The notes under the pieces: model-generated
Told to the model about the DNA's origin: nothing
The model's database searches: none
What the model saw: the letters and a program-made list of their open reading frames with translations, nothing else
NCBI GenBank assembly: GCA_034423035.1
Contig: DAOUJF010000025.1
Coordinates: forward strand, 349-64,348
Direction: 5' to 3'
DNA: 64,000 nt
Source: Dehalococcoidia bacterium
GTDB taxonomy: Bacteria; Chloroflexota; Dehalococcoidia; Lucifugimonadales; VXLM01
Translations under genes and position numbers: made by a program
Shown here: piece after piece, positions 5,949-54,512 of the stretch
Numbering within the stretch: position 1 is the stretch's first letter
How the letters are laid out: every line of letters starts with the position of its first letter

Positions 5949-7421
5949 CTACGGCTGTTTAGGCGTAACGTAGTCAACCCCGATCTCAACGCCCTCCAGG
6001 CTCACCTTGCTCGAAAGGTTGGAGGGCCTAGAGAGGTGTGTGACGGATATCTCGTTCACCCCATCGACAACATCGTCCCACTCCAAGGGAAACTCGAAGG
6101 TCGAGTACGTGTACCCATACGTCGTGTAGATCACGTCGTCTTGTGACAGTTCCTTACCGTTGAGGCGCACGCTCATCACGTCATGCGATGTCGATTCGAC
6201 CAGCTTCAGTTCCAGGACGGCGTTCGCGTCGGATGAGTCCTTGACTATCGTCAGGCTAACCGTTGCCGGGTCTGCTTCCGGTCCGACATCGAGCTCGACA
6301 GGTAGGGGAGCGTTGTATCCGAACATAACGCACTTGTCATGCCGAGGCGTCATGTAGTAGCGCTTAGGCTTCTCGAACAGCACGTCGGGATCGCCGATCT
6401 CCGTCAGAATTTGCCGCTGTTCAGACCCTATCGGCCACGGGTACCACGGCAGGTACAGGGCATCGGCTCCCCGACTCCAGTAGGCCGCCGCCGCCGCTCT
6501 GTAGTACTCTAGTCCCGCGTACTCGTCTCGGTTCGGCCCCAGTACCGACCCCATGGCCGGGTAGACCACGCAATCTCCCTTTCGCGCAAGGTCGATCACC
6601 CACTCGAACGGGAAGTCCGGGTCGATGGGCATGTGGCTGTAGACGTTCGGCACCACGAAATCGAGCAGTCCCTCTTCCAACCACGTTTCAATGTCGAAAC
6701 CGGTGTGGTTGTTGGCCGCCAGCGTCGGCAGAATTCTCGCCCCTATGTCGATGGACTTGCCCTTCATCTCACCGGCTTTATTCGCAACACGCCTGAGATC
6801 GCGCAGGAAGTCCGTCAAGACGTGCATATTGACCGCTATCTCGGCAGCCTCGAAGTAGTAGGGGTCAAAGGTCAGGTCCAGTTCGAGGCCGTCCACGTCG
6901 TATCGGATTAACGTTTCCTCAGCAATGGCGAACCTCTCAGCGCGCACCTCCGGGTAGACCCAGTTGAACGCGTTCTTGCGGTCCGGCGAGTCGTCGCCCT
7001 TGAGCACCCACTCAGGGTGGTCGATTTTGAACTGCCAGTTGTGGGCGTTGTTCACATCCGCAGGATCGGATGAGTGGGTCAGACGAAGACTGCCGATGAA
7101 GTCCATACCAACCTTATGAGCGCGATCGATCATCACGTTCAGCGGATCATGGCCCTGCTTGATGAGCCGCATGGTGTTCTCGTACCCGCGCCAGCTTGCA
7201 ACGTCGGGAATCACGTCCAGATGCGCGGCGAATACGTCGGCGTGTTTCGAGTCGTGGAACACCGTCGGCCCCACCCCGAAACCCCAGACGAACGTATCGA
7301 CTCCAGTTCCCGCCACGGCGTCGATGGTCGATGTCGCCTCCGTCATGCTCATTGGCGGCTCATGCACGTAGTAGTGGTAGTGCCGGGCGTCGTCGTAGAA
7401 GATCAGTCGTCGCTTGCTCAT
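5949..7421 (-). CDS. Uncharacterised TIM-barrel-like (glycoside-hydrolase-like) protein with C-terminal beta-sandwich, paralogue 1
   Basis: Alternating beta/alpha pattern RRLIFYDDARH, GTGVDTFVWGFG, MDFIGSLRL, VDGLELDL. Paralogous to 7495..8976 and 63171..64000. I cannot name a family. Confidence 0.6.
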   Translation of the reverse strand: MSKRRLIFYDDARHYHYYVHEPPMSMTEATSTIDAVAGTGVDTFVWGFGVGPTVFHDSKHADVFAAHLDVIPDVASWRGYENTMRLIKQGHDPLNVMIDRAHKVGMDFIGSLRLTHSSDPADVNNAHNWQFKIDHPEWVLKGDDSPDRKNAFNWVYPEVRAERFAIAEETLIRYDVDGLELDLTFDPYYFEAAEIAVNMHVLTDFLRDLRRVANKAGEMKGKSIDIGARILPTLAANNHTGFDIETWLEEGLLDFVVPNVYSHMPIDPDFPFEWVIDLARKGDCVVYPAMGSVLGPNRDEYAGLEYYRAAAAAYWSRGADALYLPWYPWPIGSEQRQILTEIGDPDVLFEKPKRYYMTPRHDKCVMFGYNAPLPVELDVGPEADPATVSLTIVKDSSDANAVLELKLVESTSHDVMSVRLNGKELSQDDVIYTTYGYTYSTFEFPLEWDDVVDGVNEISVTHLSRPSNLSSKVSLEGVEIGVDYVTPKQP

Positions 7422-7494: not shown

Positions 7495-8976
7495 CTACAG
7501 GAAGTCCTGCGGTTCCGGGTATTCGACCCGTACCTCGACCCCGTCAAGTCGTGGAAGCTCGGTGCCGAGGTTCTCAGGCCTCGACCGGACGGATATCGAA
7601 ACGTTGTTTCTGCCGGTCAGCAGCGCACCGGACTCCAGAGGAAAGTCGAGCGCCACGTGCGTGAATCCGTAAGTCGTCCTCCAGGCGCTCGATACCGTGA
7701 GTTCTTTGCTGTTGAGCATCACGACCGTCTCATCATGTACCGTGTGATCGTAGATAGTCAGTCGGAGCGTCGCCCGCGTTTCCGTATCAAACTCGTCGGC
7801 TACGAAGAAACTCACGCTGGTCGGTGAGGCTTCCGCCCCAACCGCAATCTTGGCTGGTAGTTGTGCGCCGTACAGCTGCTCAGACGAAATGTCGAAGTCC
7901 TGGCGCACGACATAGTGCTTCGTACCCTGCGAGAGCAGCTTGGGGTCGCCGATCTTGCCCAGCAGGTCTCGCTCTTCCGGGCCGTGAGGCCATTTGAACC
8001 ACGGTAGGTACGCCCCGTCCGCCCCCTTCGCCCGGTGTGACGCCGCGCCTGCACGATAATGGTCGAGCGTCGCGGGAACGTCACTGTCGCTCCCGACCTG
8101 GTCATGCAGGGTCGAGTACACCTTGCACCCGTTTGCATGTGCGACGTCGACGATCCACTCAAACGGCAGGTCGGCGTCAAGCTGCCTGTCCTGGTAGACA
8201 GTTGGCACCACGAAGTCCAGGGAACCTTGCTCGATCCACGCGGTCACGTCCATCCCGGCCGCCATGTTGCCCTCGCGGGTCGGAAGAACGCGGGCCCCTA
8301 ATGCTATGCGCTTGCCCTTCTTGGCGGACGCCGCGTCTACTGCCTTGCGTACATCGGACATGTACTCCGTCAAGATGTGGGCCTTTGCCTCGGCCTCGTC
8401 GTCCTCGAAGTAGTGAGGCCAGAACGTCCAGTCCACCTCGAACCCGTCAATGTCGTACTCGTTCACCGTCTCCTCGATAAGGGCGAAACGCTCGGCGCGC
8501 ACCTCCGGATACGTCCAGTCGAAGGCATACTTCCCGCGACCTTTGAGACACCATTCCGGGTGGTCGATTCGGAATTGCCAGTTGAACATCCAGCCGACCT
8601 CATCGTCCTGGTCTGCTGGGTCGGCCGAATGCGACTGCCGCAGCGAAACGAAAAACTCGACCTCCTTCTCCTTCGCACGGTCGATCAGGACCTTGAGCGG
8701 GTCGAGTCCGCGCTCGTTAAGGCTCTTGATGTTCTCGTACGCTCTCCATCCCGCCACCAACGGGAACGATTCCAGGTGATCGCCCCAGCGTTCACCAACG
8801 TTTGTGTCGTGGAACATCGTCGGCCCCGCGCCGAGGCCGTACACCAGCGTGTCGACCCCTGTTCCCACAACCTCGTCTATCGGCTTCCATGCGTCCTCCA
8901 GCCGGAACGGCGGGTCGTAGTAGTAGATGTACGAGTGCCGTGCATCGTTGTAGAAGAGCAGTCGTCGTTCTTTCAT
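7495..8976 (-). CDS. Uncharacterised TIM-barrel-like protein, paralogue 2
   Basis: MKERRLLFYNDARH.. is collinear with paralogue 1. Start set at the Met aligned with the paralogue 1 start. Confidence 0.6.
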   Translation of the reverse strand: MKERRLLFYNDARHSYIYYYDPPFRLEDAWKPIDEVVGTGVDTLVYGLGAGPTMFHDTNVGERWGDHLESFPLVAGWRAYENIKSLNERGLDPLKVLIDRAKEKEVEFFVSLRQSHSADPADQDDEVGWMFNWQFRIDHPEWCLKGRGKYAFDWTYPEVRAERFALIEETVNEYDIDGFEVDWTFWPHYFEDDEAEAKAHILTEYMSDVRKAVDAASAKKGKRIALGARVLPTREGNMAAGMDVTAWIEQGSLDFVVPTVYQDRQLDADLPFEWIVDVAHANGCKVYSTLHDQVGSDSDVPATLDHYRAGAASHRAKGADGAYLPWFKWPHGPEERDLLGKIGDPKLLSQGTKHYVVRQDFDISSEQLYGAQLPAKIAVGAEASPTSVSFFVADEFDTETRATLRLTIYDHTVHDETVVMLNSKELTVSSAWRTTYGFTHVALDFPLESGALLTGRNNVSISVRSRPENLGTELPRLDGVEVRVEYPEPQDFL

Positions 8977-27471: not shown

Positions 27472-27858
27472 TCAGTCCAAGACCGCCACGGCGTCGATCT
27501 CGATGTGGACGTTCGCACCGGGGAACCGCGCCCCGACGATGGTGTTGGTAGGGTAGTCGTCACCGAAGAACTCGTGGTAGATGTCGGCCTGCTCCCCGTC
27601 GAAGGGGAACCAGTCGTCCGTATTGTTGACAAAAGTAGTCAGCTTTACGATGTCGGACGGCTTGCCGCCCTCGGCCACCACCATACGGGTGAGCCTGTCG
27701 AGCACGACGCGAAGCTGCTCCATCGGCGAGCCGTTCTCCGCTTCGGACCTGTTCGCCGTGCAGCCTGACAGGAACAGCATGTTTCCCGCCCGAACGCCAC
27801 GGCTGTAGTGCGGCCCCGCAGCGTAGATATCTTCGAATCCGATCCGTCGGTTCTTCAT
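27472..27858 (-). CDS. RidA/YjgF-family reactive-intermediate deaminase
   Basis: 128 aa with the ..GNMLFLSG.. and ..PTNTIVGA..LPGANVHIEIDAV C-terminal pattern typical of RidA. Confidence 0.85.
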   Translation of the reverse strand: MKNRRIGFEDIYAAGPHYSRGVRAGNMLFLSGCTANRSEAENGSPMEQLRVVLDRLTRMVVAEGGKPSDIVKLTTFVNNTDDWFPFDGEQADIYHEFFGDDYPTNTIVGARFPGANVHIEIDAVAVLD

Positions 27859-28067
27859 AGGGGATGATATGTTCTAGTACCCATACCAGGCACCACCTAC
27901 TCCATCTCCACCCTAATTCTCAAAATTAATTTAGATATAGTATAAAATTCGGCTGAAGTGCATTTCTATTATTCCGAACATTTATAGAATTCTAAACGGA
28001 ACACATATTCCGAAAAATGTCAAGACGAAACCCTAATTAGTCCAACTTATTTTAGCACTAGATCCTC

Positions 28068-28096
28068 TTGACTGCTAACAAATGGTCGAGTATCAT
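28068..28096 (+). promoter_or_regulatory. Sigma-70-like promoter TTGACT-17 nt-TATCAT in an AT-rich context
   Basis: -35 at 28068-28073, -10 at 28091-28096, exact 17-nt spacer, AT-rich UP-like region upstream. It lies 82 nt upstream of the tRNA-like element. Confidence 0.4.
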
Positions 28097-28177
28097 ACGC
28101 TCGCAGTGGCAGATACAAACAGATAGAGACGACTCTCCTCAGCAAATCGCTGATCAAGCCGTCCCTACCATGATCAT

Positions 28178-28247
28178 GGGGGTCCCAAGGTCGGCGGCCG
28201 GGCTTCTAATCCTTCGCCGGAGGGTTCGACTCCCTCGACCTCCACCA
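28178..28247 (+). ncRNA. 70-nt tRNA-like element (perfect acceptor stem + T-arm + CCA) lacking a canonical D-arm and anticodon stem; possible pseudo-tRNA or att remnant
   Basis: GGGGGTC (28178-84) pairs with GACCTCC (28237-43), including G3:U70. A73 then CCA. T-arm is GAGGG-TTCGACT-CCCTC. The 3-prime half reads as a tRNA half with loop CTTCTAA, but the 5-prime half is 6-8 nt too short. Confidence 0.45.
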
Positions 28248-28252
28248 CTATA

Positions 28253-28278
28253 GGATCCCCGTTTGGCGACGGAGATCC
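28253..28278 (+). other. Hairpin GGATCCCCGT-ttggcg-ACGGAGATCC directly after the CCA end
   Basis: 10-bp stem with one mismatch, read directly. There is no U-tract, so terminator function is uncertain. Confidence 0.35.
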
Positions 28279-28723
28279 CAAGAGCGCCTACAGTTGAACA
28301 TAATCATGAGAATTCTGCAACTCTCATGTCTTGGTGATTGTATTATAGAAGTTCAGAACACTTGTGTGCAAGGACTTTTGAGTATTCATTAATGGCATTA
28401 TTCCCTTGACGAACAGCCAACGTCTTCGTCTGTTTCCACTCGTCACAAAACACCCGAATGTCTAGGTCTTGACCCGCCGCCTTCAGCTACTCCCTCAGCC
28501 AGTCACCAAACTACATGGCCCAGTCAGCTTACGTTACGGTCCTCATGGTAGTGGTGTTTCCCAATATCCCCTTGTTCTCAGGACTGATGAAGATCGCGCT
28601 TCGTGGGACATTTCGGGACTCTTCCTAGTGTACAGCCATCGAGAGCGAAGAAGTCAGCTTCGATCCGGATAGAGAGTTACCTGAAGCTGAGCAGGTGTGG
28701 CCCACCGGCCAGGCCCCCTTTTT

Positions 28724-28753
28724 CTGTAACATTTTGTAACATTCTGTAACTTC
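28724..28753. repeat. Three tandem 10-bp repeats (c/t)TGTAAC(a/t)T(t/c)
   Basis: ctgtaacatt ttgtaacatt ctgtaacttc has exact 10-bp phasing. It follows a GC-rich hairpin region and a T5 run. Confidence 0.7.
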
Positions 28754-28778
28754 TCGGCGAATCTTCGTATCTGAGATG

Positions 28779-28797
28779 CGGGGGTCTCCCCCGTTTG
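28779..28797 (+). terminator. Possible intrinsic terminator CGGGGG-tct-CCCCCG-TTTG
   Basis: 6-bp GC stem, 3-nt loop, short T run. No annotated gene lies upstream on this strand. Confidence 0.3.
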
Positions 28798-28984
28798 ATC
28801 CCTCCTCGCACCGCCTCGGTACGAGAATGAGTCCTGTTGTTCCGTCCTATCCTATTCACGCAGGGCTTTGCACTACGCATACGTACTGCAAGACTCATAA
28901 TAGATTATGTGTTCTTATTCGTCAAGTCCGGTTCATGATGAGTGAGTGATCGGAGTTGGTGAGGAGAACATCCCTCTCCCCTAT

Positions 28985-29011
28985 GGATACCCGCTCTCGC
29001 GGGTATGACGG
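28985..29011. repeat. Family B-type hairpin, copy B5 (GGATACCCGCtctcGCGGGTATgacgg)
   Basis: Same architecture and trailing GACGG as the other family B hairpins. Confidence 0.6.
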
Positions 29012-29105
29012 TGGCTGTGTGCGTTAGGCGTTCTCACGGAGTCTGAACAGTTACTCATAGTGAACTTGGGGGAAGAGGCGATGAGAAGGGGCGGTACCGG
29101 CCCTT

Positions 29106-30008
29106 CTACATTGAAATCAGATCCCGAACCATCTCGACGGCTCGCTCGACATCGACGCCGACCGCAACCCGCACTGTTCCATCTCCGTAGTCCGCAACGG
29201 TCCGTCCGCGCTCTTCGCCTTCGTTTACCACCGACACCTTCGCCGCGCGATACGAAAGGACGTCCGGCTCGATTGCCGCCGCAACGGCCAGCGGATCGTG
29301 CAGGTGGAACTCATCCGTCACGTCAAGCTCCTGGAATCGGTTCGTGAGAATTCGATTGCCCAGTTGGGCCTGCTTGGAGGAGCCCTCGAACCAGTGCGGG
29401 CCTCCGTCCCGGTGCATGAATGTCTCGTACGTGACGTCGAGACCAACCAGCGTGACGGGCACTCCCGACTCGAAGACGGCGTTGGCGGCCCAGGGGTCCT
29501 CATGGATGTTGAACTCGGCGTGAGGCGTGATGTTCCCCGCAACTCCGACGGCGCCGCCCATCACGATTATCTCCGGTATCGCGTCCGCAATATCCGGGCG
29601 ATTGTCCAGCACGGCTGCGACGTTGGTGAGCGGGCCGATCGCAAGGATTGAGAGTTCGCCCGGAGACGCGGAGATGCGGTCGCGCAGGAAATCCACCGCG
29701 TCCTCGCGAACCGGCTCCAGCGTCGAGCCGGGCAGGCTGACGCCGAGTCCGTCGGAACCGTGAAAGTGGTACGCATGGGTGTACGATCCATGAAGCGGCC
29801 TGTCAGCGCCGACCGCGATGGGCATGGCGCTGCTTGGCCCTTCGAGATACTCCATCAGCCTGAGAGCGTTGTCGGTCGTCTGTGCGAGCGTCGCGTTTCC
29901 GCCGACAGTCGTGATGCCCTCTACGGACAGGTCAGGGGAGTTCAGCGCCATCATGATCGCCAGGACGTCGTCCGTCCCGGGATCGGTGTCGATAATGACT
30001 CGTCGCAT
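29106..30008 (-). CDS. Nucleoside hydrolase (inosine/uridine-preferring family)
   Basis: MRRVIIDTDPGTDDVLAIMMAL is the DxDxxxDD nucleoside hydrolase fingerprint. Start set at this Met. Confidence 0.9.
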   Translation of the reverse strand: MRRVIIDTDPGTDDVLAIMMALNSPDLSVEGITTVGGNATLAQTTDNALRLMEYLEGPSSAMPIAVGADRPLHGSYTHAYHFHGSDGLGVSLPGSTLEPVREDAVDFLRDRISASPGELSILAIGPLTNVAAVLDNRPDIADAIPEIIVMGGAVGVAGNITPHAEFNIHEDPWAANAVFESGVPVTLVGLDVTYETFMHRDGGPHWFEGSSKQAQLGNRILTNRFQELDVTDEFHLHDPLAVAAAIEPDVLSYRAAKVSVVNEGEERGRTVADYGDGTVRVAVGVDVERAVEMVRDLISM

Positions 30009-53149: not shown

Positions 53150-53220
53150 CCAATTGGGTGTGATGAAGCCGTATTATCGCTAGTGTATCCGATGGATTCC
53201 CGCTTTCGCGGGAATGACGG
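53150..53220. repeat. Family B repeat, copy B2
   Basis: ccaattgggtgtgatgaagccgt... GGATTCCCGCtttcGCGGGAATgacgg. Confidence 0.8.
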
Positions 53221-54356: not shown

Positions 54357-54426
54357 CCAATTGGATGTGATGAGGCCGTATTCCAAAATCCCCCACCACC
54401 GTCATTCCCGCGTAGGCGGGAATCCA
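54357..54426. repeat. Family B repeat, copy B3 (hairpin module inverted)
   Basis: ccaattggatgtgatgaggccgt... ccgtcATTCCCGCgtagGCGGGAATcca. Confidence 0.8.
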
Positions 54427-54512
54427 TCCCCGGCGAGGTGCATCGTCATAACATTGAAGACAGTCCGTCATGCTGCCCGTCCGAATTAGGTGGGGAATCA
54501 AGGTATTCTTGA

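Follow-up and report, generated by a model that had tools for sequence, protein, structure and literature searches.

This analysis concerns the gap between two minus-strand genes, ridA (27472-27858, flanking it on the left) and a nucleoside hydrolase gene (29106-30008, flanking it on the right), in a 64,000-nucleotide stretch of contig DAOUJF010000025.1 from a Dehalococcoidia bacterium, referred to below as the window. At 1247 bp (27859-29105) the gap is the longest interval of the 64-kb window without an open reading frame (ORF) of at least 110 amino acids in any frame; the next-longest such stretch measures 446 bp, with a median length of 74.5 bp. A sequence-only reading had described it as a 1.25-kb, AT-rich and ORF-poor island in an otherwise tightly packed region, carrying a promoter, a tRNA-like element, a 10-bp repeat, TTCCG/CGGAA cores around a palindrome and several hairpins, and all of these features were recovered where it had placed them (hairpins at 28253-28278, 28305-28328, 28779-28793, 28987-29006 and 29084-29107; the one it called a "family B hairpin" is probably 28985-29011, which has two more copies in the window). 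Its AT-rich start was likewise borne out, with a GC content of 34% at 27900-28099 against a window mean of 60.3% (standard deviation 4.3%, 200-nt windows). This patch is unique in the window, every other region of which has at least 46% GC. The gap also holds six promoter-like sites, against 1.3 +/- 1.2 in shuffles, while its small ORFs (61-73 amino acids) and other six-frame fragments match no Pfam or PHROG family at E <= 1. A second contig, L001, which was assembled separately by Logan from run SRR13587050, is 3.2 kb long, covers QueF, the hydrolase, the island and ridA, is 100% identical to the window over 1361 aligned positions (27800-29160) and may stem from the same reads; its gene caller placed no gene in the gap. 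Records of the exact ridA and hydrolase proteins come solely from the window's own contig and from L001.

The locus was compared with the ENA/NCBI contigs L002-L005, L168 and L169 and with 31 GTDB species representatives around the hydrolase, the latter all labelled as Dehalococcoidia or Chloroflexota metagenome-assembled genomes and several bearing names from sponge studies; relatives of the hydrolase itself number in the thousands. Every relative with a hydrolase identity of about 72% or more preserves the gene order QueF, hydrolase, ridA, DUF1905, CoA-transferase, except L015 (74%), which lacks ridA downstream, and L032, whose contig stops inside the hydrolase gene. In 25 relatives, comprising 23 fetched loci together with L168 and L169, the hydrolase–ridA pair is kept, and its gap measures 70-1333 bp, with 70-108 bp in L006 (93% identity), L008, L016, L168 and L169, 263-480 bp in nine other loci, about 710 bp in L002 and L007, and 1333 bp in L003. 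The left segment of the island, from 27859 to about 28592, occurs in none of these 25, and in the 23 fetched loci with the pair ARAGORN found no tRNA or transfer-messenger RNA (tmRNA) gene in the gap. When the island was searched with BLAST against the relatives, homology started only at 28604 and ran rightward (78% identity over 357 nt and 87% over 120 nt with L003, with shorter matches in L002, L004 and L005); by eye, the homology to L003 picks up again at TCGCGCTTCGTGGGACAT, at about 28593. Blocks of the right part (28593-29105) can be aligned in 11 loci.

By this comparison the island is two unrelated pieces joined together, an ancestral ridA regulatory region and a lineage-specific insertion. 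The sequence-only reading had treated it as one unit, and in this respect it has to be revised: the right ~500 bp, in which the 10-bp repeat and the family hairpin lie, are ancestral regulatory DNA common to the relatives. What stands of its interpretation is that the left ~734 bp are lineage-specific, compositionally foreign DNA with a tRNA-like element. No decayed ordinary gene aligning across the interval was found in the relatives. The bases beside the ridA ATG are GTGGGTCTCC in the relatives (the complement of the Shine-Dalgarno sequence) and AGGGGATGAT in the window; because the insert adjoins the ATG and AGGGGATGAT replaces GTGGGTCTCC, about 734 bp were gained at the cost of about 66 nt of native leader, and ridA was severed from its native ribosome-binding site and promoter. 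The ridA gene itself is intact (128 amino acids, 98% identical to that of L006), the GGAGAC Shine-Dalgarno sequence of all relatives is absent before its ATG, and minus-strand promoter-like hexamers in the insertion (27996..27968 and 27968..27939) might drive it. The gap of L003 also holds a called ORF of 144 amino acids (L003:6163-6597; no Pfam family) between the promoter and the hydrolase gene, a further sign of an insertion hot spot. From left to right, the two pieces carry the following features.

27859-28592, no strand: lineage-specific AT-rich insertion, ~734 bp, adjoining the ridA start codon
27860-27913, plus strand: degenerate element resembling the ends of tmRNA or tRNA-Ala, GGGGAUG...CAUCUCC-ACCC, with a 7-bp stem and G3·U70 and without a T arm
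27914-28067: very AT-rich stretch; holds the TTCCG/CGGAA cores, and an inverted repeat in it runs into the -35 hexamer
27972-28012, no strand: three TTCCG/CGGAA cores (27972, 27997, 28008) around the palindrome TAGAATTCTA (27985-27994)
28019-28072, no strand: inverted repeat GTCAAGACGA / TCCTCTTGAC, its right arm over the -35 hexamer (repeat search)
28068-28096, plus strand: predicted sigma-70-type promoter TTGACT-17-TATCAT, 10 of 12 consensus matches, ending 81 nt before the tRNA-like gene
about 28103-28177, plus strand: predicted leader of ~75 nt
28178-28247, plus strand: alanine-type tRNA-like minigene of 70 nt (fold, Rfam)
28253-28278, plus strand: hairpin GGAUCcCCGU...GACGGaGAUCC, just past the CCA end (fold)
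28305-28328, no strand: AT-rich, terminator-like hairpin CATGAGA...TCTCATG
up to about 28592: ~260 nt, C-rich and featureless
28593-29105, minus strand: ancestral ridA upstream module (homology to relatives)
28605-28619, no strand: truncated first repeat unit GGGACATTTCGGGAC, the counterpart of GGGACATTCTGGGACATTTCGGGAC in L003
28722-28754, no strand: three 10-bp direct repeats TTCTGTAACA (Tandem Repeats Finder score 52, 3.4 copies)
28779-28793, no strand: GC hairpin CGGGGG-TCT-CCCCCG, with a longer version in L003
28896-28909, no strand: palindrome CATAAT-AG-ATTATG over the -10 hexamer (sequence)
28897-28925, minus strand: conserved promoter TTGACG-17-TATTAT, directed toward ridA (consensus scan)
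28985-29011, no strand: hairpin GGATACCCGC-TCTC-GCGGGTATGACGG resembling repetitive extragenic palindromic (REP) elements, of a dispersed family
29084-29107, minus strand: hairpin AGAAGGGGCGGT/ACCGGCCCTTCT directly after the hydrolase stop codon, likely the hydrolase terminator (repeat search)

The insertion offers little to indicate its carrier. It holds no ORF longer than 73 amino acids, and its six-frame fragments, up to 63 amino acids long, match no Pfam or PHROG family at E <= 1 (eleven fragments of at least 31 amino acids were searched, together with two small ORFs of the right part), so the integrase or pseudogene fragments suggested by the sequence-only reading did not turn up in this translated search. 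Terminal inverted repeats of the kind that bound miniature inverted-repeat transposable elements or insertion sequences were not found, the best score being 14 against a shuffle mean of 14.7, and blastn against 50,697 phage records and 72,556 plasmids returned no match. We infer that this left piece is foreign AT-rich DNA, inserted recently and probably phage-derived. The TTCCG/CGGAA cores and TAGAATTCTA, which lie upstream of the promoter, are candidate protein-binding sites. The 3′ arm of the hairpin at 28253-28278 lies within GGAGATCCCAAG (28271-28282), a repeat of the first 12 nt of the minigene (28178-28189) with 10 of 12 positions identical. An 11-nt core of this repeat, GAGATCCCAAG (28272-28282), is found in the native leader of L003 as well (~7186-7196), about 40 nt from ridA, a match which could reflect two insertions instead of one, microhomology, or chance (rough expectation 0.06).

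The minigene reads GGGGGUC CCAAGGU CGGCGG-CC-GGG CUUCUAAU CCU-UCGCCG GAGGG UUCGACU CCCUC GACCUCC ACCA. Its acceptor stem, GGGGGUC/GACCUCC, pairs at seven of seven positions and includes G3·U70, followed by A73 and an encoded CCA, and its 5-bp T arm (GAGGG-UUCGACU-CCCUC) is canonical. There is no D stem; in its stead stands a single-stranded 7-nt loop, CCAAGGU, with GG, which aligns to caagGgU in the consensus of the phage-derived model described below and to GAucuGG in the Rfam tmRNA family. The place of the anticodon arm is taken by a 9-bp hairpin with a 2-nt bulge and the 8-nt loop CUUCUAAU, and there is no tag reading frame. The minimum free energy fold (-30.4 kcal/mol) consists of exactly the acceptor stem, the loop, the hairpin, the T arm and ACCA, and the element has 69% GC within DNA of 30-45% GC. 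Neither standard nor relaxed ARAGORN, nor Rfam at gathering thresholds, makes a call in the island. Below threshold, in an Rfam scan of the kind that the sequence-only reading had proposed, the best Rfam family for the minigene is tmRNA (RF00023; 29.3 bits, E 1.3e-9 in a 1.6-kb search), with the ends aligned and the middle skipped, and it wins over tRNA in clan competition. The mitochondrial mode of ARAGORN reports a D-armless tRNA(UCU) with two anticodon-stem mismatches. A search of both strands of the window for GGGGNNN followed within 400 nt by a complementary NNNCTCCACC finds three places only, which are a tRNA-Ala gene (1903-1978), the minigene and 27860-27913.

RNAs that consist of the tRNA-like domain (TLD) of tmRNA alone have been described. 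The mycobacteriophage DS6A carries a "TLD only" tmRNA, and strong inhibition of tmRNA by a molecule of this kind, possibly through titration of SmpB, has been noted (PMC4131195); tmRNAs of ~65 nt without a coding sequence (CDS) occur in jakobid mitochondria and in two Mallomonadaceae plastids (PMC11915505). The organelle RNAs are like the minigene in keeping the tRNA-like domain alone, the messenger part being lost, whereas they are vertically inherited reductions of a resident ssrA and the minigene is an added gene within an insertion. We located the DS6A gene (tmRNA Website ID 11587) at 28478-28560 of JN698994 (L166), between gp33 and gp34, where it is unannotated; its 3′ end is CTCCACTA, so CCA is not encoded. 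The DS6A TLD scores 34.7 bits on the Rfam tmRNA model, which is also below the gathering threshold of 47. The two genes have in common an acceptor stem with G3·U70, a D-loop analogue with GG, a central hairpin of ~28-30 nt, a T arm, A73, the lack of a tag reading frame, a sub-threshold Rfam score and an intergenic position. They differ in that the hairpin of DS6A has UCGAC...GCACG at its base and the CCA of DS6A is not encoded, whereas the minigene has UCGGC...GCCG, an encoded CCA and no linker between hairpin and T arm, and lies in a bacterial chromosome without phage genes.

DS6A is the only phage example named in the searchable literature. A pattern scan of IMG/VR for short GGGG...GGTTCGANTCC...CTCCACCA units gave, among the matches listed, at least 161 matches, at least 43 of them with a fully paired acceptor stem. 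The matches listed (first 120 stretches) include at least 15 distinct TLD-only sequences of 58-68 nt, with a G3·U70 acceptor stem, GG...UUCGAC, a short and often UUCG-capped hairpin, GGACG, a T arm and CCA. These viral loci, with related ones on the same line, are the following.

L097, 4359-4426, minus strand; L114, 6627-6694, plus strand
L136, 2015-2081, plus strand; L151, 8486-8552, minus strand
L091, 298-363, minus strand; L100, 1041-1106, minus strand; L150, 11917-11982, plus strand
L083, 3162-3228, plus strand; also L138 and L157
L095, 234-300, plus strand
L107, 3082-3146, minus strand; also L141
L161, 3502-3565, plus strand
L052, 8793-8854, minus strand
L057, 176-235, minus strand
L079, 6818-6879, minus strand
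L146
L154

In an alignment of eight viral genes with DS6A every cell is paired, and the central hairpin, which the search pattern did not constrain, has both-sided changes in six of six pairs. The motif UUCGAC...GGACG is kept in standard tmRNA, in DS6A and in a core group of the viral minigenes (8 of 15 distinct sequences among the matches listed); it stands at the base of helix P2, which we take to be the SmpB contact region. ARAGORN misses the viral TLD-only genes or calls them tRNA-Glu or tRNA-Val, and L136 reaches 60.6 bits on the Rfam tmRNA model. These sequences suggest that the phage TLD-only class is large and overlooked. The window element has the same layout and size as the viral minigenes and an encoded CCA, and it has GGGGGUnCCAAGGU in common with L136 and L151, which are also the only hits of a CCAAGG-specific pattern in IMG/VR. 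The viral minigenes differ from it in their UUCGAC/GGACG motif and in hairpins of 3-7 bp with small loops, the window element having a longer, bulged hairpin with an 8-nt loop and a lower score on model R1, a covariance model built from an alignment of phage TLD-only genes. Two 59-nt matches to a "D-armless tRNA-Ala" pattern, L069 and L088, were dropped as probable inner parts of tRNAs, R1 aligning a 76-nt tRNA over the 3′ end of L069. In L097 and L114 the TLD-only gene lies beside four tRNA genes. The metagenome contig L041, with 21 tRNA genes in 14 kb, holds at 7652-7892 three adjacent tRNA-like genes to which ARAGORN assigns four-base anticodons (cttt, ctta, cata).

The best explanation of the island, which we hold tentatively, is a native ridA module joined by a recent foreign insertion carrying a small-RNA gene that mimics tmRNA. 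The insert would have landed between the ridA leader and the ridA start codon, and its cargo would be a self-contained small-RNA gene made up of the near-consensus promoter, the ~75-nt leader and a 70-nt RNA resembling the tmRNA TLD. Transcription would start at about 28103, RNase P would cut before G28178, and the encoded CCA would be exposed. Alanyl-tRNA synthetase would then charge the RNA by way of G3·U70 and A73, and since the RNA lacks both an anticodon arm and a tag reading frame, it would imitate tmRNA, either by competing for SmpB, EF-Tu and stalled ribosomes with the tmRNA of the host, which is what has been reported of a DS6A-like TLD, or by rescuing ribosomes without tagging. Host ssrA presumably lies elsewhere in the genome, none having been seen in the window. 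The composite make-up of the island, the borders of the insertion and the structure and identity elements of the minigene are established; transcription, charging and any effect on trans-translation are what we infer. The more specific proposal, that the 70-nt RNA is a working chromosomal mini-tmRNA of a free-living or sponge-associated Dehalococcoidia bacterium, with its own promoter, charged with alanine, serving as an SmpB decoy or tag-less rescuer and forming an outlying member of the phage TLD-only class, we regard as quite unlikely as it stands.

Several observations weigh against a functional tmRNA mimic. The fold of the minigene is no more stable than that of shuffled sequence (z = -0.64), and its 29.3 bits fall below the Rfam tmRNA gathering threshold of 47 bits. 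The UUCGAC...GGACG motif is not found in it, its counterpart being UCGGC...GCCG, all Watson-Crick. On R1 it scores 39.3 bits, within the 28-46 bits of true tRNA-Ala and tRNA-Gly controls, and because the controls span that range R1 does not separate TLDs from tRNA-Ala; among viral TLD-like sequences, the held-out L097 scores 78, L154, L057, L079 and L146 score 42-50, L096 scores 29.1 and L073 scores 15.0, which puts the minigene below five of seven. No homologue of the insertion or the minigene was found in GTDB genomes, IMG/VR, JGI metagenomes, or phage or plasmid records. The exact 26-mer of its T arm and 3′ end has no match in IMG/VR or the GTDB representative genomes, and a same-acceptor pattern in the JGI metagenomes gave nine matches, all of them tRNA-Ala genes in large tRNA arrays and not homologues of the insertion. 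Promoter-like hexamers are frequent in AT-rich DNA, and since the minigene stands without any phage gene beside it, it may be a remnant left behind. As R1 is not discriminating, the motif is absent and no homologue was found, we name the element for what its sequence supports: it is an alanine-type tRNA-like minigene with TLD-only architecture, not a proven member of the tmRNA family.

Among the alternatives, the one that survives best, although we think it rather unlikely, is that the segment is a dead relic, a fragment of a phage or other foreign tRNA cluster in which the minigene is a tRNA-Ala pseudogene deprived of its D stem and regular anticodon stem, 27860-27913 is a more decayed neighbour, the promoter is a by-product of AT-richness and no product of consequence is made. 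Like tRNA-Ala, the minigene has G3·U70, A73, CCA, a canonical T arm and a similar R1 score, and the same acceptor stem with a similar CCAAGGU loop occurs in tRNA-Ala(UGC) genes of metagenome tRNA arrays. The mitochondrial ARAGORN call with its two mismatches, the lack of companion genes and homologues, and the missing UCGAC/GGACG motif point the same way, as does the second, decayed acceptor-stem pair 265 nt upstream in the same orientation. This upstream element scores 17.2 bits as a local match to Rfam tmRNA and 18.5 bits on R1, with a fold no better than shuffles. Free decay, however, is unlikely to have left 21 of 21 base pairs of three helices intact and GC-rich within AT-rich DNA. Unlike tRNA-Ala, the minigene lacks a D stem and a 5-bp anticodon stem with a 7-nt loop, and damage to a 5-bp anticodon stem does not account for its 9-bp hairpin; tmRNA is ranked above tRNA by Rfam, and a promoter with 10 of 12 consensus matches stands at a sensible distance.

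Very unlikely is the account that the sequence-only reading offered as one possibility, the decayed scar of an integrative element at what was once an attachment (att) site of tRNA or tmRNA type, with the CTCCACC-ended segments as att repeats. Genes for tmRNA and tRNA are common integration sites (PMC4131195, PMC10865867). The segments form a direct repeat, CTCCATCTCCACC (27900-27912) and CTCGACCTCCACC (28234-28246), identical at 11 of 13 positions, and the AT-rich DNA between them has short inverted repeats that are possible sites for a recombinase or accessory protein. Genomic islands specific to ssrA are known from Dehalococcoides, a member of the same class Dehalococcoidia, and resemble the present case in combining a direct repeat like the end of tmRNA with foreign DNA. 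The present segment differs from them in having no integrase, no resident ssrA or tRNA at the locus in relatives, a wrong repeat order and a length below 1 kb. The ancestral state of the locus is instead a gap of 70-110 bp or a regulatory gap, and no coding remnant was found. Moreover, the only partial copy precedes the intact gene, whereas after integration at a 3′ end the displaced fragment comes to lie behind it; this copy also has a matching 5′ strand of its own, unlike the product of an att duplication, and only 320 bp separate the repeats. The former att site is thus not upheld.

Even less probable, in our view, is an unusual D-armless decoding tRNA of alanine identity with anticodon UCU or CUA (amber) in CUUCUAAU. 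The loop fits Y-U-NNN-R in two registers, in line with the tRNA(UCU) call by ARAGORN in mitochondrial mode, and the 9-bp hairpin has about the length of a D stem stacked on an anticodon stem, if the two are taken together. However, the loop has 8 nt rather than 7, either 7-nt register needs mismatched closing pairs, and there is no variable region between hairpin and T arm; to our knowledge, bacterial ribosomes do not use D-armless elongator tRNAs. An assembly chimera, to which the composition unlike the flanks and the segment without relatives might point, is scarcely credible given that the Logan contig L001 spans QueF to ridA and is identical. Least credible of all is the acceptor piece of a permuted two-piece tmRNA with a coding piece starting at GGAGAUC (28271), for which speak an Rfam tmRNA_permuted alignment at 28220-28280 (17.1 bits, E 0.65, a score at noise level) and the repetition of the first 12 nt of the minigene in GGAGATCCCAAG, and against which stand the pairing of GGAGAUC with GACCUCC (one mismatch, and A3-U70 instead of G3·U70, where GGGGGUC pairs perfectly), the lack of a downstream tag ORF ending in alanines, and relatives without ssrA at this locus.

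The native half of the island is a second candidate for the non-coding function that the sequence-only reading had proposed in general terms; that proposal now takes the shape of two candidates, the promoter-driven minigene and a conserved ridA leader and operator module. The promoter block of this module, TTGACGAATAAGAACGCATAATCTATTATGAG, reads toward ridA, is nearly invariant in 11 loci and lies 177-419 nt from the ridA ATG in relatives and 1067 nt from it in the window. Downstream of the promoter, between one and three repeat units follow. A unit is made up of three directly repeated 10-bp boxes whose cores, read on the ridA-sense strand, are GTTACA, GTCACA or GTCCC (GTTACA with a 10-nt period for the repeats of the window), and the three cores within one unit change together. 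On the opposite (plus) strand each unit is followed, after 16 nt, by a -10-like TATGTG or TATCTG. Such units are present in 10 related genomes (14 fetched loci), in each genome solely in this gap, and once in the 64-kb window; being confined to this gap, the 10-bp boxes are best read as locus-specific regulatory sites and not as dispersed repeats. The module is seen in the window, L003, L007, L009-L014, L034 and L036 and is absent in L006, L008, L016, L168 and L169, the loci with the 70-108-bp gap. Rfam has no family matching the right part. The hairpin at 28985-29011, by comparison, belongs to a REP-like family, GGAT(A/T)CCCGC-NNNN-GCGGG(A/T)ATGACGG, with further copies in the window at ~53190-53220 (plus strand) and ~54399-54430 (minus strand), and several REP-like copies make up much of the ~710 bp of the same gap in L007.

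In this module, a conserved minus-strand promoter of sigma-70 type, with a palindromic operator over its -10 hexamer, would transcribe a long ridA leader; the three 10-bp repeats in the leader would be candidate binding sites for a regulator, and REP-like hairpins would have been added around them. The boxes resemble what we take to be the direct-repeat operators of OmpR/PhoB-type (winged-helix) response regulators in their three hexamer cores, their 10-bp period and the -10-like element 16 nt further on. They differ from such operators in their position within the transcribed ridA leader, and for that reason could equally be RNA-level sites.

It is important to consider what the locus would mean under either fate of the minigene. 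Were the minigene dead, ridA in this genome would still be cut off from its native promoter and ribosome-binding site, and the locus would still be a clean recombination hot spot, a single intergenic site that spans 70-1333 bp among close relatives and varies as a regulatory module, REP elements, an ORF and a foreign fragment are gained and lost. Were it active, it would be the first RNA of the TLD-only tmRNA-like kind to be reported, as far as we found, from a bacterial chromosome other than that of a reduced endosymbiont, and a natural small RNA able to interfere with or bypass the tagging step of ribosome rescue. The comparison set also points to such genes being common in phages and missed by annotation pipelines, and the question of why DS6A carries a TLD-only gene can now be tested on many examples.

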